Both the position numbers and the translations under genes were made by a program. Below the pieces are notes generated by a model. The model had not been told where the DNA came from, made no database searches, and saw only the letters and a program-made list of their open reading frames with translations. From the NCBI GenBank assembly GCA_035702425.1, contig DASSQQ010000042.1:4605-68604 (forward strand): 64,000 bases of DNA. The letters are read 5' to 3'. This document shows positions 9,922 to 53,754 of this stretch, piece by piece; position 1 is the first letter of the stretch, and each line of letters starts with the position of its first letter. The DNA comes from Gemmatimonadales bacterium. GTDB taxonomy: Bacteria; Gemmatimonadota; Gemmatimonadetes; Gemmatimonadales; GWC2-71-9.

Positions 9922-9993
<72 letters not shown>

Positions 9994-10001
9994 CTCTTCC
10001 G

Positions 10002-10265
10002 GTGGCGACTATTCCCGTGATCCAATTCGACGACGACCCTCCCGACGACGAGTTTCCCCTGGGCGACGGCACCGCCGAGACCGCCGCGCACGTGGCCTGC
10101 CCCTACTGCGGCGCCGAGAACGACATCGCGATCGACCCCGGGAACGGGGAGAGCCAGGAATACGTCGAGGACTGCGCCGTCTGCTGCCGCCCGTGGCTCC
10201 TGCGGGTCCACTACGGCCACGACGGTCTGGCGCAGGTCGAAGTGGAGCGAGCGGACGAGGACTGA
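10002..10265 (+). CDS. small cysteine-rich CPxCG zinc-ribbon protein
   Basis: CPYCG…CAVCC motifs. The track ORF 9936..10265 starts inside the tRNA, so an in-frame GTG at 10002, just after the tRNA, is the more likely start. Confidence 0.45.
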   Translation: MATIPVIQFDDDPPDDEFPLGDGTAETAAHVACPYCGAENDIAIDPGNGESQEYVEDCAVCCRPWLLRVHYGHDGLAQVEVERADED

Positions 10266-10335
10266 ATAAGGCCCGAGCGTCCGGCCGCGTCCCGGGCGTG
10301 AGGTGCGGGCCGGAAGGCGTTATCTTGGGCCCGCC

Positions 10336-12084
10336 ATGCTCGTTCCCAAGCTCTACACCACACTTCGCGGTTACACCCGCGAACAACTCCTCGCCGACCT
10401 CACCGCCGGCGTCATCGTCGGCATCGTCGCCCTCCCGCTCGCCATCGCCTTCGCGATCGCCTCCGGCGTCTCTCCGGAGGCGGGGCTCTACACCGCGATC
10501 ATCGCCGGCTTCCTGATCTCCGCCCTCGGCGGCTCCCGGGTGCAGATCGGCGGTCCGACCGGCGCCTTCGTGGTGATCGTGTACGGGATCGTCCAGCGCT
10601 ACGGCGTGGAAGGGCTCACCGTCGCCACCCTGATGGCCGGCGTCATTCTCATCGTGATGGGGCTCGCCCGCTTCGGCGGCGCCATCAAGTTCATCCCCTA
10701 TCCCGTCACCATCGGATTCACGAGCGGCATCGCCCTGATCATCTTCTCGGGCGAGGTGAAGGACTTCCTGGGCCTCCGGATGGGACCCGTCCCCGCCGAC
10801 TTCATCTCCAAGTGGCGCTCCTTCGCGGCCCACTTCCCGTCCGCCAACCCCTGGGCGATCGGCATCGCGGTGGCCACGGTGCTGGTGGTGTTCCTCTGGC
10901 CCCTGGTGTCGCGCCGGGTGCCGGGCGCGTTCGTCGCGCTGATCGCCACCACCCTCGCGGTGACGCTGTTCCATCTGCCGGTCGAGACCATCGGCACCCG
11001 CTTCGGGCACATCAACGCCGGGCTCCCGCGTCCGTCGCTGCCGGACATGAGTCTCCCGCTCCTGAAGACCCTGATCGGCCCCGCCTTCACCATCGCGATG
11101 CTGGGCGCGATCGAGTCTCTGCTCTCGGCGGTGGTGTCGGACGGGATGATCGGGGGCCGCCACCGCTCCAACATGGAGCTGGTGGCGCAGGGGGTCGCGA
11201 ACCTCGCCTCGCCGCTCTTCGGCGGAATTCCCGCGACCGGCGCCATCGCGCGCACCGCCACCAACGTCAAGAACGGCGGCCGCACGCCGGTGGCGGGGAT
11301 GACCCACTCCGTGGTGCTGCTTCTCATCACGCTCTTCTTCGGCCGCTGGGCGGGGCTGGTCCCGCTCGCGACCCTCGCCGGGATTCTGGTGGTGGTCGCC
11401 TACCACATGAGCGAATGGCACTCGTTCGTGGCCGAGCTCGCGGGGGCGCCGAAGAGCGACGCGCTGGTGCTGCTGGTGACGTTCCTGCTGACGGTGCTGG
11501 TGGACCTCACGGTCGCCATCGAGGTGGGGATCGTGCTCGCCGCGTTCCTGTTCATGAAGCGGATGGCGGAGGTGACGAACGTCAGCGTGCTGACCCACGA
11601 GTTCAAGGACCCCGCGGAAGACTTCGAATCGGATCCCAACGCGGTGATGCGGCGGAGCGTGCCGGCGGGCGTCGAGGTCTACGAGATCAGCGGGCCCTTC
11701 TTCTTCGGCGCGGCGGAGACCTTCAAGGAGCGGGTGGGCCAGGTGGCGAGCCGGCCCAAGGTGCTGATTCTCCGGATGCGGCACGTGCCCGCCATCGACT
11801 CCACCGGGCTCCACGCCCTGCGGGAGCTGGTGCGGCGGAGCGCGCACGGCGGCTCCCTGGTGCTGCTCTCCGACGTGCACGCCCAGCCGGTGGTCGCCTT
11901 GGAACGCTCGGGGTTGCTCTACGACCTCGGCGAGGAGAACATCCTGGGGAACATCGACGACGCCTTGAACCGCGCCCGCGCGCATCTGGGGCTTCCCCCG
12001 GTGCCGCGGCCCGCGTTCGCCACACCCACCGTCGCGCGCGAGACGCCCTCTCCCGGCACCCTCCGCGCCATCCCGGAGCCCTGA
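10336..12084 (+). CDS. SulP-family inorganic anion (sulfate/bicarbonate) transporter with C-terminal STAS domain
   Basis: Multi-TM N-terminal region with SulP signatures and a C-terminal STAS-like region ([16 protein letters not shown]…[16 protein letters not shown]). Start taken at the internal ATG ([10 protein letters not shown]…). Confidence 0.8.
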
Positions 12085-40313: not shown

Positions 40314-41246
40314 TCAGTCCATCGCGACCTTTTCGATCGCCGAAAGCCGCGAAATGTCCACCGTGGGGACGCCCCGCCCATCGTGCCGGAACATGTCCAG
40401 GAATCGCGCGCCGCACACCACCTCGCCGGCGCGATAGGAGGTGCGGGCGTGCACCGTCTGGGTGAAGGTGTCGTCGGTGCCGGCGAGAAGCACCAGGAAC
40501 TCGCTGTCCGAGCTCCGGAGCCCCTCGGCGGTCGCGTCCTTGAGCGGGCTCTGGTCGTCTATGGGGTGGACGACGGTCCACGAAAGCGGGAAGAACGCCA
40601 CCCGCCGCCGCTCCAGGGTCAGGGCGTGAAATTCACGGGACCCGCCGCCCGCCCGCCGGCGGGTGAGCACCACCTGGGCGTCGAGCTCCACGATCTCGCT
40701 CTTGCGCCCGTTCACGATCCGGAACATGAACGCCTCGCCGCCGCGGTAGGGGGCGATCACCGCGACGTCGGAAAAGAGAATCGCCGCCGTGGGCCGGGAC
40801 ACCCGCGCGAAGGCGAGCCCCGCCGCGAGCGCGAACACCAGCAGGCCGACCAGGGCCTCGAGGGTCACCAGCAGATTCGCCACCAGGCTCCCCGGCGTGA
40901 CGTTGCCGTACCCGATGGTTGCCAGGGTGTGGACGCTGAAGAAGAACGCGCGGCCGAATCCCGAGACCGGGGCGCCGCTCGCGTTCACCAGGGCGCCGGG
41001 CCCCGAGGCGAGGTAGAGCAGGGCGAAGATGGCGTTCAGCGCGAGAAAGGCGCCGCAGACGAGGAGCAGGAAGTGCGGCCAGGAAATGGTGAGGAGATCG
41101 CGGTACAGCGAATGCGAGCGCCAGTAGGGGAGTCCCTCCCGGCGCACGTTGAAGCTGCCGTCCTTGTTGAGGAGCCGGCTCTTCGCTTCCCGGGCTACGA
41201 CGGACCCGAACCCCAGGTCCTCCGGCGGCTCTCGGGTTACGGCCAC
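40314..41246 (-). CDS. inward-rectifier-type prokaryotic K+ channel (KirBac family)
   Basis: Slide helix, two TM segments and the TIGYG selectivity filter (HTLATIGYGNVTP), followed by a Kir-type cytoplasmic beta-rich domain. Confidence 0.75.
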   Translation of the reverse strand: MAVTREPPEDLGFGSVVAREAKSRLLNKDGSFNVRREGLPYWRSHSLYRDLLTISWPHFLLLVCGAFLALNAIFALLYLASGPGALVNASGAPVSGFGRAFFFSVHTLATIGYGNVTPGSLVANLLVTLEALVGLLVFALAAGLAFARVSRPTAAILFSDVAVIAPYRGGEAFMFRIVNGRKSEIVELDAQVVLTRRRAGGGSREFHALTLERRRVAFFPLSWTVVHPIDDQSPLKDATAEGLRSSDSEFLVLLAGTDDTFTQTVHARTSYRAGEVVCGARFLDMFRHDGRGVPTVDISRLSAIEKVAMD

Positions 41247-43165: not shown

Positions 43166-43265
43166 GGGCCCCCCCGTTCCGCCCGCGCGCCGCGCGCTCC
43201 CGCGGCCCCTCGCCGTCTCCCTGCTCCCACCTCATATTTTCTTCCCCCCGCTCGAGGAGGTATGG

Positions 43266-45362
43266 ATGCGAGTTTACAAGACAGGGGAAATCCGCAACGT
43301 GGCCGTCCTCGGCCACGGCGCGAGCGGGAAGACCTCCCTGGTCGATGCCCTCGCGTTCGTGGCCGGATCGAGCAAGCGTCACGGCTCCGTGAAAGACGGC
43401 ACCGCCCTCACCGATTACACTCCCGACGAAATCGAGCGCAAGTACTCCATCAACCTGGCCCTCGCCGTGGCCGAGTGGATGGACACCAAGGTCAATCTGA
43501 TCGACACCCCGGGATACCTCGACTTCACCGGCGACGCGCTGGCGGGCGTCTACGCCGCGGACGGGGCGGTGGTGGTCCTCGCCGCGACGGCGGGCGTCGA
43601 AGTGGGCACCGAGAAGGTGTGGGATTACTGCGAGTCGCGGCAGCTGCCGCGCCTGTTTTTCGTCTCCCTGATGGACAAGGAGCACGCGGACTTCGAGCGG
43701 GTGTACGCGCAGGTGAAGGAGCGTCTCACGCCCAAGGTGATCCCGGTGGAGATCCCGGTCGGGGAAGGACCGGAGTTCCACGGGATCATCAACCTCTTCT
43801 CCAGGAAGTGCCATCTGTACAAGAAGGGCACCAAGGCGGGGGAATACGAGGAAGTCGACATTCCGGCGGAGTACCAGGAGCGCTTCAAGAAATACTCGCA
43901 GGAGCTGATCGAGAGCATCGCCGCGACCGACGATACCCTGCTCGAGCGCTACCTGGGCGGCGAGGAGATCGGCCGCGACGAGGCGATCCGGGCGATGAAG
44001 ACGGGAATGCAGCGGGGCGAGATCTTCCCGCTCTTCTGCGGCGCGGCCGAGCTGACCTACGGCACCCGCGCGCTCCTCTCCAAGATGGTGGAGCTCTTCC
44101 CCTCACCCGCCGAGCGGCCGCCGGTCGAAGCCCAGGTCTGGGGGTCGGCGGAGAAGCTCACCCTGAAGCCGGAAGACAACGGGGCGTTCGTGGCCCAGGT
44201 CTTCAAGACCATCTCCGAGCCCCACGTCGGCGACGTGACCTACTTCCGCCTGGTCTCGGGCGCGGTGAAGAACGGGCAGGAGGTCTGGAACGCGCCGCGC
44301 GAAGCGTCGGAGAAGCTCAACCATCTCTGCGTCGCCATCGGCAAGGACCGCACCGAGATCGCGGAGCTGCATTCGGGAGACCTGGGATGCGTCGCCAAGC
44401 TGCGCGACACCCACACCAACGACACGCTCTCCTCCCGGGAGCGGTCCGTGGTGCTCCCCCGGATTCCGTTCCCCGAGCCGGTGATCACGGTGGCGGTCGA
44501 GGTGAAGCAGCGGGGCGAGGAAGACAAGCTCTCCACCGGTCTCCACAAGCTCCACGAAGAGGACCCCACCTTCCATCACGAGTACCAGGCGGAGCTGGGC
44601 CAGACGCTGATCCGCGGCCTGGGCGAGCGGCATCTCGAGATCGTGGTGGGGCGCTTGGCGCGCAAGTTCGGCGTGCACGCGCTCACCACCAAGCCCAAGG
44701 TTGCCTACCGCGAAACGCTGAAGGGGAAGGCCGAGGGGCAGGGGAAGCACAAGAAGCAGACCGGCGGGCGCGGGCAGTACGGCGACTGCTGGATCCGGGT
44801 GGCGCCGCTGCCCCGCGGCTCGGGGTTCGTCTTCGAGGACCAGATCGTGGGCGGGGTGATTCCGCGCCAGTACATCCCGGCGGTGGAGCGGGGCGTGGTG
44901 GAAGCGGCCCAGCGGGGGCCGGTGGCGGGATATCCGATGGTGGACTTCAAGGTCGAGCTGTACGACGGCTCCTATCACGACGTGGACTCGAACGAAATGT
45001 CGTTCAAGATGGCGGGCATTCTCGCCTTCCGGACCGTGACGCCCAATGCGCGGCCCGCCCTGCTCGAGCCGATCATGGAGGTCGAAGTCTGGACCCCGGA
45101 CGAATACCAGGGCGCGGTGATGGGGGACCTCTCCTCCCGGCGCGGGCACATCGTCGGCACCGAGAAGGACGGCCGGCTCACCAAGGTGAAAGCGCTGGTG
45201 CCTGAAGCCGATCTCGACCGCTACGCCACCACGTTGCATTCTCTCACGCACGGCCGCGGCACCTACCGCCAGAAGTTCCACGTCTATCAGGAAGCGCCGC
45301 CGGACGTTGCGGCCAAGATCGCCGACGCGCGGAAGAAGGAGCTCACCGAGGTGAAGGACTAG
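43266..45362 (+). CDS. elongation factor G paralog (EF-G-like GTPase) with an atypical GTPase centre
   Basis: Five-domain EF-G architecture over 698 aa, with GAGGAGG as the RBS. The P-loop is GHGASGKTS instead of AHIDAGKTT. Switch II is DTPGYLDF instead of DxPGHxDF. Confidence 0.8.
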   Translation: MRVYKTGEIRNVAVLGHGASGKTSLVDALAFVAGSSKRHGSVKDGTALTDYTPDEIERKYSINLALAVAEWMDTKVNLIDTPGYLDFTGDALAGVYAADGAVVVLAATAGVEVGTEKVWDYCESRQLPRLFFVSLMDKEHADFERVYAQVKERLTPKVIPVEIPVGEGPEFHGIINLFSRKCHLYKKGTKAGEYEEVDIPAEYQERFKKYSQELIESIAATDDTLLERYLGGEEIGRDEAIRAMKTGMQRGEIFPLFCGAAELTYGTRALLSKMVELFPSPAERPPVEAQVWGSAEKLTLKPEDNGAFVAQVFKTISEPHVGDVTYFRLVSGAVKNGQEVWNAPREASEKLNHLCVAIGKDRTEIAELHSGDLGCVAKLRDTHTNDTLSSRERSVVLPRIPFPEPVITVAVEVKQRGEEDKLSTGLHKLHEEDPTFHHEYQAELGQTLIRGLGERHLEIVVGRLARKFGVHALTTKPKVAYRETLKGKAEGQGKHKKQTGGRGQYGDCWIRVAPLPRGSGFVFEDQIVGGVIPRQYIPAVERGVVEAAQRGPVAGYPMVDFKVELYDGSYHDVDSNEMSFKMAGILAFRTVTPNARPALLEPIMEVEVWTPDEYQGAVMGDLSSRRGHIVGTEKDGRLTKVKALVPEADLDRYATTLHSLTHGRGTYRQKFHVYQEAPPDVAAKIADARKKELTEVKD

Positions 45363-45425
45363 GCGAGAACACTCCACACCGGAACGGGTACTGGGGAGCG
45401 ACCTGGTTCTGGAGGATGTCGACTC

Positions 45426-46364
45426 ATGAGACTCACGACGCTCGCCGTGGCCGCCGCGCTCCTGGGTGCGGCCTGCAAGCTGCCGGATAAGACTCAGCGC
45501 AGCTCCGACATGCCGCCTGCCCCGCCCGCCCCCGCGGCGGCCACCAAGGTGTTGGCGGTGGACGGGTTCCTCGCGCCCGAGTCCGTGCTCTACGACTCGA
45601 CGCAGGACATCTACTTCGTTTCCAGCATCGCCGGCAGCGGTACCGCCAAGGACGACAACGGCTTCATCAGCCGGCTCCGCCCCGACGGCGCCATCGAGAA
45701 CCTGAAGTTCATCGAGGGCGGGAAGAACGGCGTCACCCTGAACGCGCCCAAGGGTCTGGCCATCGTGGGCGACACCCTGTGGGTGGCGGACATCGACGTG
45801 GCGCGCGCCTTCAACGCCAAGACCGGCGCGCCGGTGGACAGCGTCAGTCTCGCCCCGCTGGGAGCGGTGTTCCTGAACGACATCGCCGCGGCGCCGACCG
45901 GCGCGCTCTATCTCACCGACACCGGAATCCGCTTCGACGACGTCGGCAACCGGCTCCATCCCGGTCCCGACCGCATCTACCGCATCGGCCCCGACCGCCA
46001 GCTGACCGTCGCCGCGCGGGGCGACACCCTGGACCAGCCCAACGGCATCGCGCTCGACGGCCCGGGGAAGCGGTTCATCGTGGTGTCCCTGGGCGGAAAG
46101 TCGGTCTTCGCCTGGAAGCCGGGCGACAAGTCCCCCGCGGTGCTCGCCACCGGCCCCGGCTCCTACGACGGCGTGGTGGTGGCGAAGGGCAGGATTCTGG
46201 TGTCGTCGTGGAAGGACTCGACGGTCTCCGCCTACGAGACCGGCCAGGAAGTCCGGATCATTTCGGGCGTCGGCGCGGCCGACATCGGCTACGACGCCAG
46301 GCGCAACCGCCTGCTGCTGCCCTTCGTCGACGGCACGCGGGTGGAAATCTGGCAGCTCCCCTAG
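45426..46364 (+). CDS. beta-propeller lipoprotein (SMP-30/gluconolactonase/LRE-like), paralog 1
   Basis: Lipobox LLGAAC. Shares ~60% identity with the gene at 47078..47998, including the identical nucleotide run TTCATCGAGGGCGGGAAGAACGGCGTCACCCTGAACGCGCCCAAGGGTCT. Confidence 0.6.
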   Translation: MRLTTLAVAAALLGAACKLPDKTQRSSDMPPAPPAPAAATKVLAVDGFLAPESVLYDSTQDIYFVSSIAGSGTAKDDNGFISRLRPDGAIENLKFIEGGKNGVTLNAPKGLAIVGDTLWVADIDVARAFNAKTGAPVDSVSLAPLGAVFLNDIAAAPTGALYLTDTGIRFDDVGNRLHPGPDRIYRIGPDRQLTVAARGDTLDQPNGIALDGPGKRFIVVSLGGKSVFAWKPGDKSPAVLATGPGSYDGVVVAKGRILVSSWKDSTVSAYETGQEVRIISGVGAADIGYDARRNRLLLPFVDGTRVEIWQLP

Positions 46365-46382
46365 ACGAGCGAGGAGGCCCGC

Positions 46383-47081
46383 ATGGTCGTCCCGGTTCAG
46401 CTCCCGACTGCCCAGCGCGACGTCCAGGTGGGTGGCGTCACCTACCACGTCGAGGGTGAGCTCGTTCCCGTGCTGCACCTCGAGCTGCAGCGGATGCCGG
46501 TGTACTTCGAGCATCACATTCTGCTCTGGAAGAGTCCCGGCGTGGAGGTGGACATCAAGCCGCTCAAGGGCGCGTTCAAGCGGGTGATGGCCGGAATGCC
46601 GGTGTTTCTCACCCAGACCAAGGGCGTGGGGCACATCGCGTTTTCGCGGGACGGCGCGGGACACGTCTTCGGCATCCACCTGAAAGAGGGGCAGGCGATC
46701 GACGTGCGCGAGCATCAGTTTCTCGCGGCCACCGACAACGTCGAGTACTCCTTCGCCCGGGTGAAGGGCGTGGCCAACATGCTCTTCGGGGGGACCGGGT
46801 TCTTCATCGACACCTTCGCCTGCAAGAGCGGGAGCGAAGGCGTGGTCTGGCTCCACGGCTACGGCAACGTGTTCGAAGTAACCCTCAAGCCCGGGGACAT
46901 GATCGACGTCGAACCCGGCGGCTGGGTCTACAAGGACCCCACCGTCAGGATGGAGACCATGACCCAGAAGCTTTCCACCGGACTCTTCGGCAGCGCCGGC
47001 ATGCTGTTCTGGAACAGGTTCCACGGCCCCGGCCGGCTCGCCATTCAGTCCATGTACCTGCACCTGCCAACGGAGGCGTGA
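46383..47081 (+). CDS. AIM24/DUF124 family protein
   Basis: 232 aa with the typical AIM24 beta-rich pattern (…GGTGFFIDTF…GEGVVWLHGYGNVFEVTLKPGDMIDVEPG…). Confidence 0.65.
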   Translation: MVVPVQLPTAQRDVQVGGVTYHVEGELVPVLHLELQRMPVYFEHHILLWKSPGVEVDIKPLKGAFKRVMAGMPVFLTQTKGVGHIAFSRDGAGHVFGIHLKEGQAIDVREHQFLAATDNVEYSFARVKGVANMLFGGTGFFIDTFACKSGSEGVVWLHGYGNVFEVTLKPGDMIDVEPGGWVYKDPTVRMETMTQKLSTGLFGSAGMLFWNRFHGPGRLAIQSMYLHLPTEA

Positions 47082-47998
47082 TTTTCATGAGGCTCGACCG
47101 TCACACCCTCGCGGCGGCGTTCGCCGTCGTCACCGTGAGCGCGTTCGCGCGCCCGGCCCGCGCCCAGGGCGCGACCCGCGTCGCCATCGTGGACTCGCTC
47201 CAGACGCCGGAGTCGGTCAAGTACGACGCCGGGCGCGACATCTACTGGATCTCCAACATCAACGGCACCCCCTCCGCCAAGGACGGGAACGGATTCATCA
47301 GCAAGGTCCGTCCCGACGGCTCCATCGTGGCGCTCAGGTTCATCGAGGGCGGGAAGAACGGCGTCACCCTGAACGCGCCCAAGGGTCTCGCCCTGAAGGG
47401 CGATACGCTTTGGGTGACCGACATCGACGCCGTGCGCGCCTTCAACGCCAACACCGGCGCCCCGGTCGCTTCGGTGGACCTCTCGGCGCTGGGCGCCGTG
47501 TTCCTGAACGACCCCGCGTTCGGCCCCGACGGCGCGCTTTACGTCACCGACACCGGCATTCACATCGACGAGAAGGGGCAGTCCACCCATCCCGGACCCG
47601 ACCGCATCTTCCGGATCGCGCCCGACCGCAAGGTGACGGTCGCCGCCGAGGGTGCCGCGCTCGAGGCGCCGAACGGCATCACCTGGGACACGGCGCACGG
47701 CCGGTTCGTGGAAGCGGGCTTCGGCGGGCCGGACGTCTTCAGCTGGAAGCCGGGGGAAAAGGCGCCCACCGCCATCGCCAAGGGGCCGGGCGGCTTCGAC
47801 GGCGTGGAGATCGTGAAGGGGCGGCTCCTGATCTCGTCGTGGGCCGACTCCACGGTGTCGGCGTACGAGACGGGAACCGAAGTGAAGATCATCACCGGGG
47901 TGCCGAGCCCGGCCGACTTCGGCTACGACGCCAGGCGGAACCGGGTCCTGATTCCCAACATGACGGCGAACCGGATGGAGATCTGGCAGCTGCCGTAA
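47078..47998 (+). CDS. beta-propeller protein (SMP-30/gluconolactonase/LRE-like), paralog 2
   Basis: Signal peptide. Paralog of 45426..46364. Its start overlaps the AIM24 stop (ATGA). Confidence 0.6.
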   Translation: MIFMRLDRHTLAAAFAVVTVSAFARPARAQGATRVAIVDSLQTPESVKYDAGRDIYWISNINGTPSAKDGNGFISKVRPDGSIVALRFIEGGKNGVTLNAPKGLALKGDTLWVTDIDAVRAFNANTGAPVASVDLSALGAVFLNDPAFGPDGALYVTDTGIHIDEKGQSTHPGPDRIFRIAPDRKVTVAAEGAALEAPNGITWDTAHGRFVEAGFGGPDVFSWKPGEKAPTAIAKGPGGFDGVEIVKGRLLISSWADSTVSAYETGTEVKIITGVPSPADFGYDARRNRVLIPNMTANRMEIWQLP

Positions 47999-48053
47999 GC
48001 GAACGGCGTGGTGCGTGGGGCGCGGGCATCCGTCCGCCCCACCCACCACGCCT

Positions 48054-49130
48054 TCACCCGCCTGCTTCAGGTTCTTGCTGCGTCAGGCAGTGGATCGTCC
48101 CCAGCCCCCAAACCAGGTCCACGGCGTGAATCCCCACCACCGGCCGGTCCGGAAAGACTTCGGCCAGAATCCCTAACGCCTCCCGGTCCTTCGGGTCGTT
48201 GAAGGTGGGGACCAGCACCGCCGCGTTCGCGACGTAGAAATTGGCGTAGCTCGCGGGCAACCGCTGGCCGTCGAAGACGAGCGGCGCCGGCATCGGCAGG
48301 TCCACCACTTCGATTTTCGATCCGTCCTCGGTGACGAGCCCCTGCAGTCGCTCGCGGTTCTCCGCGAGTGGCGCGTAGTTCGCGTCCCGGGGGTCCGCCT
48401 CCACGCAGAGGACCACGGTGCTCGGCCCCACGAAGCGGCAGAGGTCGTCCACGTGGCCGTGGGTGTCGTCCCCCGCGATTCCCCGTCCCAGCCAGAGCAC
48501 GTTGGTGGCGCCCAGGTAGTCGCGCAACACGCTCTCCAGGTCGGTGCGCGAAAGCCCGGGGTTCCGGGTCTGCACCACCGGGTCGAGCAGGCACTCCTCG
48601 GTGGTGAGCACCGAGCCCTCGCCGTTGACGTCGATGCTCCCGCCCTCCAGCACCACCCGGCGCCCCCGCAACTCGGCGTCGAAGATCTTCCGGCGGAGCT
48701 TCTTCGCCGCGAACTCGGGGAGCTTCCGGTCCTTCTTCCAGTCCGGATACTTGGCCCAGGCGTTGAAGTGGAACCGGGAGACCGCGATTTCCGGCGCCGG
48801 CTCTCCGCGCCGCACGAAGATCGGCCCCGAATCCCGGGTCCAGCCGCGGTCGGTGGGGAAGCGGAGGAACCGGACCCGCGCGAGACTCGCCCCCGCCTTC
48901 TCGAGCACCCGCCGGGCGGCGCGCTCCTGTGCCGGCGAGCTCACCAGAATCCGCGCCGTCTCGCCTTCCGCGATCCGGCGGGTGATTTCGCCGTACACCC
49001 AGGGGATGACGGCGAGCTTCCCCGGCCAGTCGCTCGCGTTGTGGGGCCAGGCGAGCCAGGTCGCCGCGTGGGGCGCCCACTCGGCCGGCATCCGGAAACC
49101 GAGCGCGGCGGGGGTGGGGAGCACCTTCAT
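48054..49130 (-). CDS. aguA: agmatine deiminase
   Basis: Full-length member of the peptidyl-arginine-deiminase-like family, with the C-terminal catalytic Cys motif GTIHCLTQQ. Confidence 0.85.
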   Translation of the reverse strand: MKVLPTPAALGFRMPAEWAPHAATWLAWPHNASDWPGKLAVIPWVYGEITRRIAEGETARILVSSPAQERAARRVLEKAGASLARVRFLRFPTDRGWTRDSGPIFVRRGEPAPEIAVSRFHFNAWAKYPDWKKDRKLPEFAAKKLRRKIFDAELRGRRVVLEGGSIDVNGEGSVLTTEECLLDPVVQTRNPGLSRTDLESVLRDYLGATNVLWLGRGIAGDDTHGHVDDLCRFVGPSTVVLCVEADPRDANYAPLAENRERLQGLVTEDGSKIEVVDLPMPAPLVFDGQRLPASYANFYVANAAVLVPTFNDPKDREALGILAEVFPDRPVVGIHAVDLVWGLGTIHCLTQQEPEAGG

Positions 49131-49164
49131 CGAGATGAGGAAGAGGAGCGGGACCGACGCCGCA

Positions 49165-50073
49165 CTACCGGGCGTCGCCCGAGTAGCGCGCGTCGATCCC
49201 GCCGTAGGCGTCCACCCGGCGGTCGCGCCAGAAGGGCCAGTTGCGCCGGACCTCCTCCACCCGCGCCAGGTCCACCTCGGCGACCAGAATCGTCTCCTGG
49301 TCCGCCGGGGCTTCGGCCACCACCACCCCGAACGGGTCGGCGAGGAACGACGAGCCCCAGAACTCGATCCCGTCGCCCTTGCCGTCGAGCCGCTCCAGGC
49401 CCACGCGATTGACCGCCGCCACGTAGCACCCGTTGGCGATGGCGTGGCTCCGCTGGATCGTACGCCAGGCGTCCCGCTGCTCGGGACCGTACCGCTGCTT
49501 CTCGGCCGGATGCCAGCCGATCGCCGTGGGATAACAGAGCAGCGTCGCGCCCTGGAGCGCGGTGAGCCGCGCGCCTTCCGGATACCACTGGTCCCAGCAC
49601 ACCAGGGTGCCCACCCGGCCGGCCTTGGTGTCGAAGGCGCGGAACCCCAGGTCGCCGGGCGCGAAGTAGAACTTCTCGTAATACGCCGGGTCGTCCGGGA
49701 TGTGCATCTTCCGGTAAAGACCCAGGACCTTCCCGTCGGCGTCGATGATCGCGGCGGTGTTGTGGTAGATCCCCGCCGCCCGGCGCTCGAAGAGCGACGC
49801 GATCACCACCACCCCCAGTTCCCGGGCGACCTGGCCCAGCGCCTCGGTGGAGGGCCCGGGCACCGGCTCGGCGAGGTTGAAGAACGCGTGATCCTCGCGC
49901 TGCCCGATGTAGAGAGTGCGGAACAGCTCGGGAAGGACGACCAGCGCGGCCCCCCGCTTCGCGGCGTCCCGCACCCGCGCGATGGCCTTCTCGAGATTCT
50001 GGCCGGGGTCCGCCGTCATGCTCATCTGCACCAGCGCGACCTTGTACTTCGCGGGCGTCCGGAGATCGGTCAT
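49165..50073 (-). CDS. aguB: N-carbamoylputrescine amidase (carbon-nitrogen hydrolase family)
   Basis: Nitrilase-superfamily catalytic triad context (VVLPELF…, RKMHIP, LVCWDQWYPE). Start taken at MTDLRTPAKYKVALVQ. Confidence 0.85.
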   Translation of the reverse strand: MTDLRTPAKYKVALVQMSMTADPGQNLEKAIARVRDAAKRGAALVVLPELFRTLYIGQREDHAFFNLAEPVPGPSTEALGQVARELGVVVIASLFERRAAGIYHNTAAIIDADGKVLGLYRKMHIPDDPAYYEKFYFAPGDLGFRAFDTKAGRVGTLVCWDQWYPEGARLTALQGATLLCYPTAIGWHPAEKQRYGPEQRDAWRTIQRSHAIANGCYVAAVNRVGLERLDGKGDGIEFWGSSFLADPFGVVVAEAPADQETILVAEVDLARVEEVRRNWPFWRDRRVDAYGGIDARYSGDAR

Positions 50074-50149
50074 AAGGAGGGAACAGTACAACCGGGAGAC
50101 GGGAGGCGGGAGACGGGCGGCGTCCCCGGCTCGCGTCTCCCGATTCCGG

Positions 50150-51238
50150 TCAGCCGACCAGCACCGCCTCCAGCTCGGTCTGGAGCTGGGGTTGTTTATA
50201 GCGGTAGCGCTTGCCGGCGTAGTTCCTCAAGACCACTTCCTTGTCCGTGATCTTCACCACGTACTCGGGGAGGAGGGGAATCTTCCCGCCGCCGCCCGGC
50301 GCGTCGATCACGAAGTGCGGCACCGCGAGGCCCGAGGTCCAGCCCCGGAGCCCCTTCACGATCTCGAGGCCCTTCTCCACCGTGGTCCGGAAGTGCTCGG
50401 CGCCGGCCACCTGGTCGCACATATAGATGTAGTAAGGGCGGACCCGCGCCGCGAGCAGTTTCTGCATCAACAGCTTCATCACTTCGACGTCGTCGTTCAC
50501 GCCGGCCAGGAGCACGGTCTGGCAGCCGAGGGGAATCCCGGCGTCGGCCAGCATGCCCAGGCCGGCCACCGCGGCGGGCGTGAGCTCGTCGGGGTGGTTG
50601 AAGTGGGTATTGATGTAGAACGGATGATACCGTTTGAGGATCGCGCACAGCTCGGGCGTGATCCGCTCCGGCAGGTGGCAGGGGACCCGGCTGCCGATGC
50701 GGATGATCTCGAGGTGGGGGATCGCCCGCAGGCGCTTCAGGATTTCATCCAGGCGCCGGTCGGAGAGCAGCAGGGGATCGCCGCCCGACATGATGACGTC
50801 GCGGATTTCCTTGTGATCCTCGAGATACTGGAACCCGGACTCGAGCTGGGAGAGCGGGATTTTCTCCGGATCGCCCACCTTGCGGCGGCGGGTGCAGAAC
50901 CGGCAGTACGACGCGCAGACCGGGGACACGAGGAACAGCGCCCGGTCCGGATAGCGGTGGGTGATGTTGGGGACGGGGGAATCCGCGTCCTCGTTCAGCG
51001 AATCCACGATGCCGTCGTGGACCTCGAGCTCCTGCAGGTCCGGCACGTACTGCCGCCAGATCGGGTCGCCGGGGGACTTGATCAGGTCCACCATCGCCGG
51101 CGAGATGCGGAACTCGAAGTTCTCCGCCGCGAGGCGGAGGCGCTCCAGGTCGGGGAAGTGCTCGGGTCCGAACCGGGCCGCGAGCGTCTCCAGCGACGCG
51201 ATGCTTTTCTTACGAAGCAGCTCTTGCCAGGACTCCAT
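50150..51238 (-). CDS. KamA-family radical-SAM aminomutase (lysine 2,3-aminomutase-like, short form)
   Basis: CASYCRFCTRR (CxxxCxxC) followed by a PLP-binding region. 362 aa. Confidence 0.8.
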   Translation of the reverse strand: MESWQELLRKKSIASLETLAARFGPEHFPDLERLRLAAENFEFRISPAMVDLIKSPGDPIWRQYVPDLQELEVHDGIVDSLNEDADSPVPNITHRYPDRALFLVSPVCASYCRFCTRRRKVGDPEKIPLSQLESGFQYLEDHKEIRDVIMSGGDPLLLSDRRLDEILKRLRAIPHLEIIRIGSRVPCHLPERITPELCAILKRYHPFYINTHFNHPDELTPAAVAGLGMLADAGIPLGCQTVLLAGVNDDVEVMKLLMQKLLAARVRPYYIYMCDQVAGAEHFRTTVEKGLEIVKGLRGWTSGLAVPHFVIDAPGGGGKIPLLPEYVVKITDKEVVLRNYAGKRYRYKQPQLQTELEAVLVG

Positions 51239-51710
51239 GCGTCAGGTCCTTGAGATAGATGACCAGGTCGTCACCGGGAGCGTAATAGCCCGGAAGCACC
51301 GCGGCCCTGGTGAAGCCGCGTTTTTCGTAAAACGCCCGCGTCGGCGCGTAATCCGCGCGGGATGACGTCTCGACCACCACCAGCCGGCCCCCGCCGGCCC
51401 GCACCTGCCCCTCCACTTCCCGGAGCAGGTCGCTGCCCACCCCGGTCCCGTGCCGCGCCGGATCCACGGCGATCCAGTACAGGTCCCAGGTCCCGTCGGT
51501 GCCCGGCGTCGGCCCCCAGCAGGCCCACCCCACCAGCTCGTCGGCGGCGTAGGCGCCGACCAGCCGGTAGTCGTCGTCCCCCGCGAGGGCATCGTCCAGG
51601 AGCTCGACCGCGGTCCGGACTTCTTCCTCGCGGAAGACGCCCGTGGCGCGGGTCAGGGCTTCAAGACGTGCGCGTTGCGCGCGGCCGACGGGGCGGAGCG
51701 AGCAGCTCAC
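51210..51710 (-). CDS. GNAT-family acyltransferase
   Basis: 166 aa. Acetyl-CoA motif region HGTGVGSDLL. Overlaps both neighbouring genes, so the exact start is uncertain. Confidence 0.6.
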   Translation of the reverse strand: MSCSLRPVGRAQRARLEALTRATGVFREEEVRTAVELLDDALAGDDDYRLVGAYAADELVGWACWGPTPGTDGTWDLYWIAVDPARHGTGVGSDLLREVEGQVRAGGGRLVVVETSSRADYAPTRAFYEKRGFTRAAVLPGYYAPGDDLVIYLKDLTHGVLARAAS

Positions 51711-52680
51711 GCGCGGCCTTCGCTCCCTGCGCCTCCCGCAGCGCGACTTCGGCGACGCGGCGCACCAGCTCGGCGTAATCCCACCCGGCGGCCTTCGCCA
51801 TCCGGGAGAGGCCCGCCTCGTCCGTCAGGTCGGGGTTGGGATTCACCTCGAGCACCCAGGGCCGGCCGGTGTCGTCCACCCGGAGGTCCACCCGGCCGTA
51901 GCCCTTGCCCTGCATCACCTGCCACGCCCGCTCCGCAGTGCGCACCAGCCGGTCGGCGAGGCGCTGCGAGATGTGGGCCGGCACCACCGGCACGCTCCCC
52001 ACGTCCTCCGCCGACCCGGTGTGCCACTTCGCGGCGTAGGTGAGGATCGGCCAGCTCCCCTCCGGCATTCCGGTGAAATCGATCTCGGCGACGGGCAGCA
52101 CCCTCGAGCCCACGAAGCCGACGTTGAATTCGCGGCCGGGGATGTACTGCTGGACCAGCACCTCGTCGAACTGCTCGGTCATCGCGGCGACCTGCGCTTT
52201 CAGCGCCTTGCGGTCGGTGACCACCGAGGCCTTGTCGAGTCCCGCGCTCGCGTCTTCCGCGGCGGGCTTGATGATGGCGGGCAGCGGGAAGTCGTCGTCG
52301 ATGCGGCCCTGCGCCACCGCCCACGCCGGGATCGGCACGCCGGCGCGGGCCAGGATGGTGTTGGCGATCGGCTTGCGCCGGCACGCCGCCACGGTCCAGG
52401 AGCCGCAGCCGGTGAAGGGGATGCCGGCGAGCTCCAGCACCGCGGCGACGTGGTCCTCCCAGTCCTGCACCCCGTGCACGCCCTCGCAGAGGTTGAAGAC
52501 CAGGTCGGCGCGGCGCGCGGCGGTGAGCCAGCGCATGTCGTGCTTCACCGGAACCTTCTGCGCCTGATGGCCGATGCCGGTGAAGATCTCGGCGATCTCG
52601 TCCACCGCCTGCATCACCCCGGCGATGTCCTCCGGGGTCCAGTCCCCCGCTCCCGGGTCGTACAGAATGACCAGTTTCAC
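51661..52680 (-). CDS. D-alanine--D-alanine ligase-family ATP-grasp enzyme (paralog 2)
   Basis: ATP-grasp fold motifs (…PLPAIIKPAAEDASAG…, …GRVDLRVDDTGRPWVLEVNPNP). The GTG start overlaps the upstream paralog's stop (GTGA). Confidence 0.7.
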   Translation of the reverse strand: MKLVILYDPGAGDWTPEDIAGVMQAVDEIAEIFTGIGHQAQKVPVKHDMRWLTAARRADLVFNLCEGVHGVQDWEDHVAAVLELAGIPFTGCGSWTVAACRRKPIANTILARAGVPIPAWAVAQGRIDDDFPLPAIIKPAAEDASAGLDKASVVTDRKALKAQVAAMTEQFDEVLVQQYIPGREFNVGFVGSRVLPVAEIDFTGMPEGSWPILTYAAKWHTGSAEDVGSVPVVPAHISQRLADRLVRTAERAWQVMQGKGYGRVDLRVDDTGRPWVLEVNPNPDLTDEAGLSRMAKAAGWDYAELVRRVAEVALREAQGAKAARELLAPPRRPRATRTS

Positions 52681-53732
52681 GCGAACGCCTCCCGGGCCAC
52701 TTCCAGCTCCCGTCCGTGGACGCGCCGCCAGGCGAGCCGGACCACTTCCTGGATCAGCTCGTCGTAGGAGAGCCCCGCCACCCGCGCGGCTTTGGGGAAG
52801 CAGGAGTTCATCCGGGGGTCGGGGATGATGCCGGGGAGCGGATTCAGTTCCACCACGTTGGGCACGCCGAAGCGATCCATCCGGATGTCGATGCGGCACC
52901 AGTCGCGGCAGCCGAGGGCGCGGTAGGCGGCGAGCGCGACCCGCTCCACGGCGTCGGCGACGCTCGGGGGCACCCGCGCCGGGCACTGGAAGATGTCGAG
53001 CTGATGCTCGGCCGTGTCCCAGATCCACTTGGCCTCGTAGCCGTAGACCGGCGTCGCGCCCTCGGGGAGGGTGGCGAAGTCGAACGCGACGAGGGGGAGA
53101 CAGCGCGCGCCGGCGCCGTTGCCGAGAATGGCGGCGGTGAACTCCTGGCCGGGGAGGTAGGTCTCGACCAGGACCGGCTGGTCGTATTCTTCTAAGAGGA
53201 AGAGGCCCCGCTCCCGGAGGGCCCGGGGGCCTTCGCATAAGTTGTTGGCAAATATGCCTTTACCGGATCCTTCGCCGACCGGTTTCACGAACAGCGGGAA
53301 GGGGAGTCCGACCCGGTCCAGGTCCCGCGCGGTCTCCACCAGCACGAACGGCGCGGTGGGGATGGCGCGGTGCGCGAGGATTTCCTTGGTGCGCGCCTTG
53401 TGGAGGGTGAGCGCGAGAGTGAGCGGGTCGGAGCCGGTGTAGGGAACGTTCAGGTACTCGCAGATCGCCGGCACGTGGGCTTCGCGATTCAGGCCGTGCA
53501 GTCCCTCGGCCATGTTGAAGACCAGGTCGGGACGGGCGAGCGCGAGTTTTTGGGGGAAGAGCGGATCGGCTTCGAGGCGGATGACGGGACCGAAGAAACT
53601 GAGGGCCTGCTCCACCGCGCTGATGGTGGTGGGCTCGTCCCATTCGACGAACGCGTCGCCGCTACGACTGGGCGGCTCGTCGGCCAGGGTGCCGGGATCG
53701 GGTTTCTCGTTGTATGCGAGACCGATTCGCAT
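52677..53732 (-). CDS. D-alanine--D-alanine ligase-family ATP-grasp enzyme (paralog 1)
   Basis: Motifs …PFPLFVKPVGEGSGKGI…, …CRIDIRMDRFGVPNVVELNPLPG. RBS GGAGGT before the ATG. Confidence 0.75.
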   Translation of the reverse strand: MRIGLAYNEKPDPGTLADEPPSRSGDAFVEWDEPTTISAVEQALSFFGPVIRLEADPLFPQKLALARPDLVFNMAEGLHGLNREAHVPAICEYLNVPYTGSDPLTLALTLHKARTKEILAHRAIPTAPFVLVETARDLDRVGLPFPLFVKPVGEGSGKGIFANNLCEGPRALRERGLFLLEEYDQPVLVETYLPGQEFTAAILGNGAGARCLPLVAFDFATLPEGATPVYGYEAKWIWDTAEHQLDIFQCPARVPPSVADAVERVALAAYRALGCRDWCRIDIRMDRFGVPNVVELNPLPGIIPDPRMNSCFPKAARVAGLSYDELIQEVVRLAWRRVHGRELEVAREAFA

Positions 53733-53754
53733 GTGGTCTCGGGATACCTCCTAC

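Follow-up and report, generated by a model that had tools for sequence, protein, structure and literature searches.

An EF-G paralogue of Gemmatimonadota, almost certainly of the EFG II subfamily, with tyrosine at the catalytic histidine site and an atypical G4 motif

The DNA analyzed here is a 64,000-nucleotide stretch (hereafter the window) of contig DASSQQ010000042.1 from a Gemmatimonadales bacterium (assembly GCA_035702425.1), and the gene under study, which encodes a paralogue of elongation factor G (EF-G), lies at 43266–45362 on its plus strand, with an ATG start, a product of 698 amino acids and the stop codon included in these coordinates. A Shine-Dalgarno sequence, GAGGAGG (43254–43260), stands 5 nt ahead of the ATG at 43266, and GGAG is kept upstream of the orthologues of this gene. 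Two long open reading frames overlap it in alternative frames (43262–45205, plus strand, 647 aa; 44103–47063, minus strand, 986 aa); because their translations are rich in Arg, Gly and Pro and they lack third-position GC bias, they are considered artefacts of DNA with approximately 70% GC rather than genes. A Pfam search of the 698-residue protein detected GTP_EFTU, EF-G_D2, EFG_III, EFG_IV and EFG_C, in agreement with the full five-domain EF-G architecture that an earlier note, made by reading the sequence, had described. Almost certainly, this gene is an EFG II (EF-G2/fusA2) orthologue, the one found in Gemmatimonadota; EFG II is an ancient, widespread and fast-evolving EF-G paralogue that coexists with canonical fusA.

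The motifs of the protein were compared with those of Thermus thermophilus EF-G (1DAR), the alignment being gap-free in the G-domain core, and T. thermophilus EF-G2 (1WDT), whose sequence was verified, was aligned as well and used for position numbering. In G1, or the P-loop (residues 16–24, 43311–43337), AHIDAGKTT of T. thermophilus EF-G is replaced by GHGASGKTS, followed by Leu25, with the EF-G-specific residues swapped (A to G, I to G, D to A and A to S), and in G3, or switch II (residues 80–87, 43503–43526), DTPGHVDF is replaced by DTPGYLDF, with Tyr84 (codon TAC, 43515–43517) at the position of the catalytic His. Both motifs had been read correctly in the earlier note, and the EF-G-specific residues do differ; however, nothing is missing from the Walker-A consensus GxxxxGK[ST], and the note's description of the protein as lacking the canonical P-loop is therefore overstated. 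Three further changes were absent from that note. In G2, or switch I (residues 57–63, ERKYSIN, 43434–43454), ERGITI becomes ERKYSI and the Mg-ligand Thr of RGITI becomes Ser61; in G4 (residues 134–137, 43665–43676), NKMD becomes SLMD in the gap-free alignment of PRLFFVSLMDKEHADF with PRIAFANKMDKTGADL, so that the Asn and Lys of NKxD are gone and the guanine-specifying Asp137 is retained; and in G5 (residues 259–261, 44040–44048), the canonical GSA (GSAL) becomes GAA (GAAE). None of the four canonical EF-G motifs AHIDAGKTT, RGITI, DTPGH and NKMD is present. The phosphate and Mg ligands are retained (P-loop Lys22 and Thr23, switch-I Ser61, Asp80 and Gly83), and the residues by which the sarcin-ricin loop (SRL) activates canonical translational GTPases are all swapped, including the catalytic His (to Tyr), the P-loop Asp (to Ala) and the Ile/Ile pair of the hydrophobic gate (to Gly/Tyr). 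At the tip of domain IV, loop I (QTGGRGQYG, 44757–44783) is identical to the T. thermophilus EF-G motif that contacts the decoding centre in translocation, and loop II (GSYHDVDS, 44967–44990) is also retained according to the alignment; both loops are kept family-wide and are near-invariant in Gemmatimonadota.

Margus, Remm and Tenson (2011) divided bacterial EF-G genes into EFG I, spdEFG1, spdEFG2 and EFG II, and defined EFG II by Gly16 and Leu25 in the P-loop, Thr291, Gly333 and Lys/Arg352 in domain II (1WDT numbering), and loss of RGITI with Ser, rarely Thr or Gly, at the fourth position ('xxxSx'). For comparison with this definition, we aligned the window protein with 10 orthologues, 1WDT, T. 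thermophilus EF-G and 145 cluster representatives, the last being the full-length members of the 150 best representatives clustered at 50% identity; 141 of the 145 carry the non-canonical signature (G/S-H-x-x-x-GKT-x-L, xxxS and DTPG[Y/F...]), and a representative of canonical type, P0147, is from Dictyoglomus. The window protein has the EFG II residue at all five diagnostic positions (G, L, T, G and K), and its RKYSI shows both the loss of RGITI and the Ser at the fourth position. Position 16 is Gly in the window protein and the 10 orthologues and Ala in all five canonical sequences; position 25 is Leu in the window protein (GKTSL) and in 129 of 153 non-canonical sequences, the canonical residues being T/L/T/C/T; and positions 291, 333 and 352 are Thr, Gly and Lys, where the canonical sequences have Ile or Val, Ala (Gly in one) and Gly. 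The likeness to the subfamily, which is the 'EFGII' of Atkinson 2015, further includes the five-domain fold, a G1 of the form GHxxxGKT followed by Leu, the conserved domain-IV loops and a locus outside the str operon, and a canonical EF-G is expected alongside. In the motif list of the subfamily, G1 and G3 of the window protein are as listed, whereas its SLMD and GAA, and the [ST][LMQ]MD of the Gemmatimonadota clade, deviate from the NKxD and gSAx that the published consensus retains, although the structurally solved members deviate at G4 too (TKLD and NQLD).

A family phylogeny, which the earlier note had proposed as a check, points the same way: in a neighbor-joining tree, 100/100 bootstrap replicates put the five canonical sequences on one side and the 153 others, among them the window protein and 1WDT, on the other, and the Gemmatimonadota clade was also recovered at 100/100, the tree being built with five canonical sequences and without spdEFG or Tet outgroups. 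When residues 1–154 only were searched against the PDB, the top three matches were EF-G2 structures (7uvp, 114 bits; 9k0z, 105; 1wdt, 103), and canonical EF-G G domains reached at most 100.6 bits. Among the NCBIfam models, NF009381 (PRK12740.1-5 subfamily) was passed at 872 bits (cutoff 583) and the EF-G equivalog TIGR00484 was just passed (674 vs 659 bits), and the lineage-specific models NF009377 'EF-G-like protein EF-G2' (642 vs 890) and NF058620 EFG2_Bacteroid (591 vs 1000 bits) failed. The suggestion of the earlier note that this is a divergent EF-G-like paralogue was thus well founded, and by its diagnostic positions, tree placement and G-domain ranking, the protein can be named as a member of EFG II.

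In a scan of one genome per species, at least 590 stretches carried a relative, counted here as an orthologue; the 80 that matched best all come from Gemmatimonadota (Gemmatimonadales, Gemmatimonadaceae and Longimicrobiales). All 120 of the closest database proteins (85–88% identity) have DTPGYLDF, S[LM]MD and GHGA[SC]GKT[ST], and those with a named source come from Gemmatimonadales metagenome-assembled genomes. Only 2 of 698 residues distinguish the window protein from the single closest one, P0001, whose gene is found right where a 95.6-kb contig of a soil metagenome (L082; JGI 3300006804, Ga0079221_10000005) begins; another related locus, L081, is ENA ERZ27253162. The window therefore stems from another assembly, though a closely related one. 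In a set of 72 full-length Gemmatimonadota orthologues (60–88% identity), the His site is Tyr (64), Phe (7) or Leu (2) and never His, G4 is [ST][LMQ]MD in 72 of 72 and never N-K, and the switch-I Ser is conserved in almost all. Across 73 Gemmatimonadota sequences, G16, H17, G18, G21 and K22 never vary, nor do the Asp, Pro and Gly of DxPG, the P-loop Lys and the G4 Asp among the orthologues, and the acidic residues of the G' region are conserved, which may represent a patch contacting L7/L12. Pairwise ratios of nonsynonymous to synonymous substitution rates (dN/dS) against the window gene were 0.12–0.16 overall in 9 of 11 orthologues and 0.115 and 0.265 in the other two; in the eight closest orthologues, the G domain had a dN/dS of 0.09–0.12, below that of domains II–V. 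The low G-domain dN/dS, together with motif conservation, therefore indicates that the divergent G domain is under purifying selection, and selection of this kind on the paralogue is strong.

The family-wide alignment also shows how ordinary the most conspicuous substitution is. When one sequence is taken per 50%-identity cluster, the 141 non-canonical representatives have Tyr at the His site in 67 cases, Phe in 33, Asp in 13 and His in 4, i.e., Tyr or Phe in 100 (71%), and two of the three characterized EF-G2 proteins (those of Thermus and Mycobacterium) share the Tyr. Replacement of the catalytic His by Tyr is thus a normal hallmark of EFG II, real but part of a published signature, and the substitutions singled out in the earlier note are not unusual. 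Of the 141 representatives, only 13 have a G4 that lacks Asn as well as Lys, and three of these 13 belong to the Gemmatimonadota clade; the [ST][LMQ]MD form of this motif appears from these alignments to be the only lineage-specific twist. In the same clade the G5 Ser is often lost too, whereas strong constraint acts on the G4 Asp and on the remainder of the pocket.

Among experimentally studied proteins, the best PDB match to the G domain (114 bits) is EF-G2 of Bacteroides thetaiotaomicron (FusA2, BT2167; 7UVP/8DMF), whose residues were taken from the PDB alignment and whose function was taken from citing papers; as described there, it lets translation proceed with no GTP being hydrolyzed, and limiting carbon induces it. 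Its N-terminus is very similar to that of the window protein (MKVYQTNEIKNIALLG vs MRVYKTGEIRNVAVLG), the catalytic His is likewise absent and the G4 Lys is likewise lost, but it has Ser at the His site (G3 DCPGSDDF), no P-loop His (G1 GSSGSGKTTL) and NQLD as G4, and its function has been shown by experiment. Bacteroidota and Gemmatimonadota are usually placed in the FCB group. EF-G2 of Mycobacterium smegmatis (9K0Z/9K10; G1 GPSGGGKTTL, G3 DTPGYADF, G4 TKLD) shares the switch-II Tyr, the G2 Ser, the loss of the G4 Asn and a locus outside the str operon, and is itself non-essential, but its P-loop lacks His, its G4 Lys is kept and it scores approximately 478 bits over the full length. According to a 2026 preprint, in which the change from His88 to Tyr98 is stated, this protein has no ribosome-dependent GTPase or recycling activity, binds 70S ribosomes and 50S subunits in a position displaced from the SRL and is termed stress-specific, and the H88Y substitution nearly abolishes the GTPase of M. 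smegmatis EF-G1. Thermus EF-G2 (1WDT/2DY1; G1 GHAGSGKTTL, G3 DAPGYGDF, G4 TKLD) has Gly16, His17, Leu25 and the switch-II Tyr in common with the window protein, but its G2 keeps Thr (HRTTV), it is 33 residues shorter with deletions in G', and it is biochemically GTPase-active: it reportedly binds and hydrolyzes GTP with an intrinsic activity above that of EF-G1 and supports poly(Phe) synthesis. More generally, EFGII has been reported to be able to stand in for EF-G, with slower translocation.

With these precedents, a working model can be proposed. Since the nucleotide-binding core, the G4 Asp and the tip loops are conserved, it is likely that guanine nucleotide binding has been retained, and ribosome binding is probably kept as well. 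The protein would bind guanine nucleotide, dock at the factor-binding site of the ribosome, engage the decoding centre and promote tRNA-mRNA translocation, with the canonical SRL-activated hydrolysis machinery (His to Tyr, Asp to Ala and Ile/Ile to Gly/Tyr) absent; it would therefore most likely serve, when energy or nutrients are scarce, as an alternative translocase of low speed or as a factor bound to the ribosome, its GTP hydrolysis being stimulated by the ribosome little or not at all. The weak-hydrolysis part of this proposal is made because the SRL-activation residues are replaced, and it is modelled on the Bacteroides and Mycobacterium proteins; a GTPase much weaker than that of EF-G1 is accordingly suggested, if by a narrow balance. 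Taken as a whole, an EFG II orthologue acting as a slow, low-GTPase alternative factor is the interpretation we favor, with some reserve. In this respect the earlier note, which had spoken of a GTPase-impaired or mechanistically divergent factor, was right about the divergent G domain, whereas Tyr alone is no proof of impairment, and its mention of a rescue factor found no support in the evidence gathered.

Several observations weigh against the favored interpretation. Thermus EF-G2 shares Gly16, the Tyr and non-RGITI features, yet hydrolyzes GTP, and given that one Tyr-bearing EF-G2 (Thermus) is active and another (M. smegmatis) is inactive, loss of GTPase activity cannot be deduced from residues; moreover, a G4 without Asn and Lys makes nucleotide affinity, and even binding, uncertain. 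Over the full length, canonical EF-G (583 bits, the top score) exceeds the solved EF-G2 proteins (468–478 bits), although Thermus EF-G2 likewise scores higher to canonical EF-G, the divergence among EFG II lineages being greater than that between them and EFG I, which evolves slowly. Finally, a tblastn search of the 64-kb window, the part of the source genome that was searched, found no canonical fusA. If Tyr is compatible with hydrolysis, the protein might be a fully enzymatic, GTP-hydrolyzing alternative translocase like that of Thermus, with which it shares Gly16/His17/Leu25 and Tyr, and its G domain is indeed the most constrained part after domain IV; this is a possibility to be taken seriously but not the expected one, given that neither Asn nor Lys is left in the G4 of the window protein, whereas the TKLD of Thermus keeps Lys, that H88Y nearly abolishes the GTPase of M. 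smegmatis EF-G1 and that the Tyr-bearing EF-G2 of that species is inactive. The latter protein suggests a different role again, a non-translocating regulator of stress or stationary phase that sits on the factor site of the 70S ribosome or 50S subunit without hydrolysis, translocation or recycling. Its G domain is the second-best PDB match, it shares Tyr and degenerate G1, G2 and G4 motifs, and it is the ribosome-binding, stress-specific precedent described above; nevertheless, we consider such a role for the window protein rather improbable, as its translocation-driving tip loops are identical to those of canonical EF-G and near-invariant and its P-loop keeps His17, where M. smegmatis has GPSGG.

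Other readings would take the gene out of EFG II or deny it a function. It could be the sole, housekeeping EF-G of a lineage in which the main translocase has changed: the TIGR00484 cutoff is passed, the public name is plain 'elongation factor G' and no other EF-G was seen, in 64 kb only. That is very unlikely, because the gene never stands beside rpsL, rpsG or tuf in 81 loci (searches of the window and of the DNA flanking 80 orthologous loci found neither these three genes nor a second EF-G gene), because Atkinson 2015 (Additional file 2) records EFG as well as EFGII for Gemmatimonas aurantiaca T-27, next to EF-Tu, IF2, LepA, RF3 and TypA, and because, among the 305 genomes of Margus 2011, those with one EF-G gene all had EFG I, and EFG II never occurred without another EFG. 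From canonical EF-G (EFG I, fusA; 1DAR), which has the same domain order and identical tip loops, the window protein differs in all five G motifs, in the diagnostic residues (A/T/I/A/G in canonical EF-G) and in its lack of str-operon context, so the earlier note was justified in setting it apart from the housekeeping gene. It is just as hard to see in it a ribosomal protection protein of the Tet(M)/Tet(O) type or a recycling-only factor of the spdEFG2/RRF2mt type. Weak tet_protect homology (301 bits) and the depositor label 'TetQ' of 7uvp hint at the former, but 301 bits is far under the cutoff of 775, and the TetO/TetM G domains rank lower still, below RRF2mt; the mitochondrial RRF2 keeps AHIDAGKTT and DTPGH and its G domain ranks under the three EF-G2 structures, and all five EFG II diagnostic residues argue against both types. 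The switch-I KDG insertion of spdEFG1 was likewise not found in the gap-free alignment of the window protein to T. thermophilus EF-G. As for a sequencing error at the His codon, which the earlier note had raised, or a decaying pseudogene copy, TAC is one base from CAC and nothing more speaks for it; with an intact frame, dN/dS of approximately 0.1–0.15, identical motifs in 120 of 120 close homologues and non-canonical ones in 72 of 72 distant orthologues, its probability is negligible.

The gene lies outside any str operon, and its surroundings vary among relatives. A promoter-like pair, ctcgcc (43209–43214) and catatt (43233–43238) separated by 18 nt, lies upstream on the plus strand (43209–43238), 33 nt before the ATG, and 29 of the 71 regions compared upstream of orthologues, the window included, have a CTAGCC/TTGACA-N17-18-CATATT pair at 31–42 nt from the ATG, with the TTGACA variant in loci L024, L035 and L051; the pair stands out in DNA with approximately 70% GC. 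This conserved CTAGCC/TTGACA-CATATT pair suggests a putative promoter of the paralogue's own, although a generic scan for sigma-70 promoters and terminators around the gene gave nothing above shuffled expectation and did not call the pair. The upstream neighbor is an EamA transporter gene on the same strand, and downstream (45426–47998, plus strand) two paralogous SGL/SMP-30/gluconolactonase/NHL beta-propeller genes (312 and 306 aa) flank an AIM24/TIGR00266 gene (46383–47081). These neighbors are limited to close relatives, EamA being present in 11 and SGL in 18 of 80 loci; the SGL-AIM24-SGL trio likewise occurs only in close relatives, and both beta-propellers have signal-peptide-like N-termini.

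Farther downstream, the minus strand carries a KamA-family radical-SAM aminomutase gene followed by GNAT (51210–51824) and Ddl-like ATP-grasp (52677–53750) genes, the cluster spanning 50150–53750. In 23 of 80 Gemmatimonadota loci, the aminomutase gene lies downstream of the paralogue in convergent orientation, and in several distant loci the two are immediate neighbors; loci with the aminomutase gene include L022, L025, L028–L031 and L063 (around 10200–11380). A link to lysylation of EF-P was considered and rejected, as the aminomutase resembles AblA/KamA (442 bits, below the cutoff of 525) rather than EpmB (224 bits, cutoff 369), and the GNAT and ATP-grasp genes after it and the convergent orientation also disfavor such a link; the cluster looks like one of beta-amino-acid or compatible-solute type, in an inherited gene order without a translation link. 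At 48000–50226 (minus strand) lie an agmatine deiminase-like gene (PAD_porph, called in L081 and L082; 7789–8097 in L081) and, next to it, a gene for an N-carbamoylputrescine amidase-like CN-hydrolase (49165–50226; 309 bits, below the cutoff of 410), a pair that likely converts agmatine to putrescine. A homologue of bacterial Kir-type potassium channels with IRK, Ion_trans_2 and IRK_C domains is encoded at 40314–41246 (minus strand). An Rfam scan of the whole window at the gathering threshold detected no RNA other than one tRNA, whose gene lies at 9922–9993 (plus strand).

Much of what has been described is already known: EFG II has been recognized since 2007–2011, was catalogued in Gemmatimonas in 2015 and is covered by an NCBIfam model, and what is new is confined to a group of orthologues, uncharacterized and at the level of a phylum, whose G4 motif is atypical. 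There is a practical side to this. Since the TIGR00484 cutoff is passed, the public name (NCBI, JGI) is only 'elongation factor G' and does not separate the gene from fusA, and the paralogue can therefore pass for fusA, including where EF-G serves as a single-copy marker. EF-G2 is also of current interest, with a Bacteroides protein that translocates without GTP hydrolysis and a mycobacterial one that is a stress factor. An EF-G2 that is under strong constraint throughout the Gemmatimonadota and has an odd G4, while it opens no new question, would be a reasonable additional test case. In guanylate-binding proteins, TLRD stands where NKxD would be expected, and GTP is bound nonetheless. It is conceivable, though we hold it only tentatively, that the G4 and G5 changes in Gemmatimonadota set apart a variety of EF-G2 that handles nucleotide differently, be it by very low-affinity, exchange-factor-free binding, as in those proteins, or by largely nucleotide-independent action; if so, the protein would be a GTP-free translocation or ribosome-protection factor in slow-growing oligotrophic soil bacteria.

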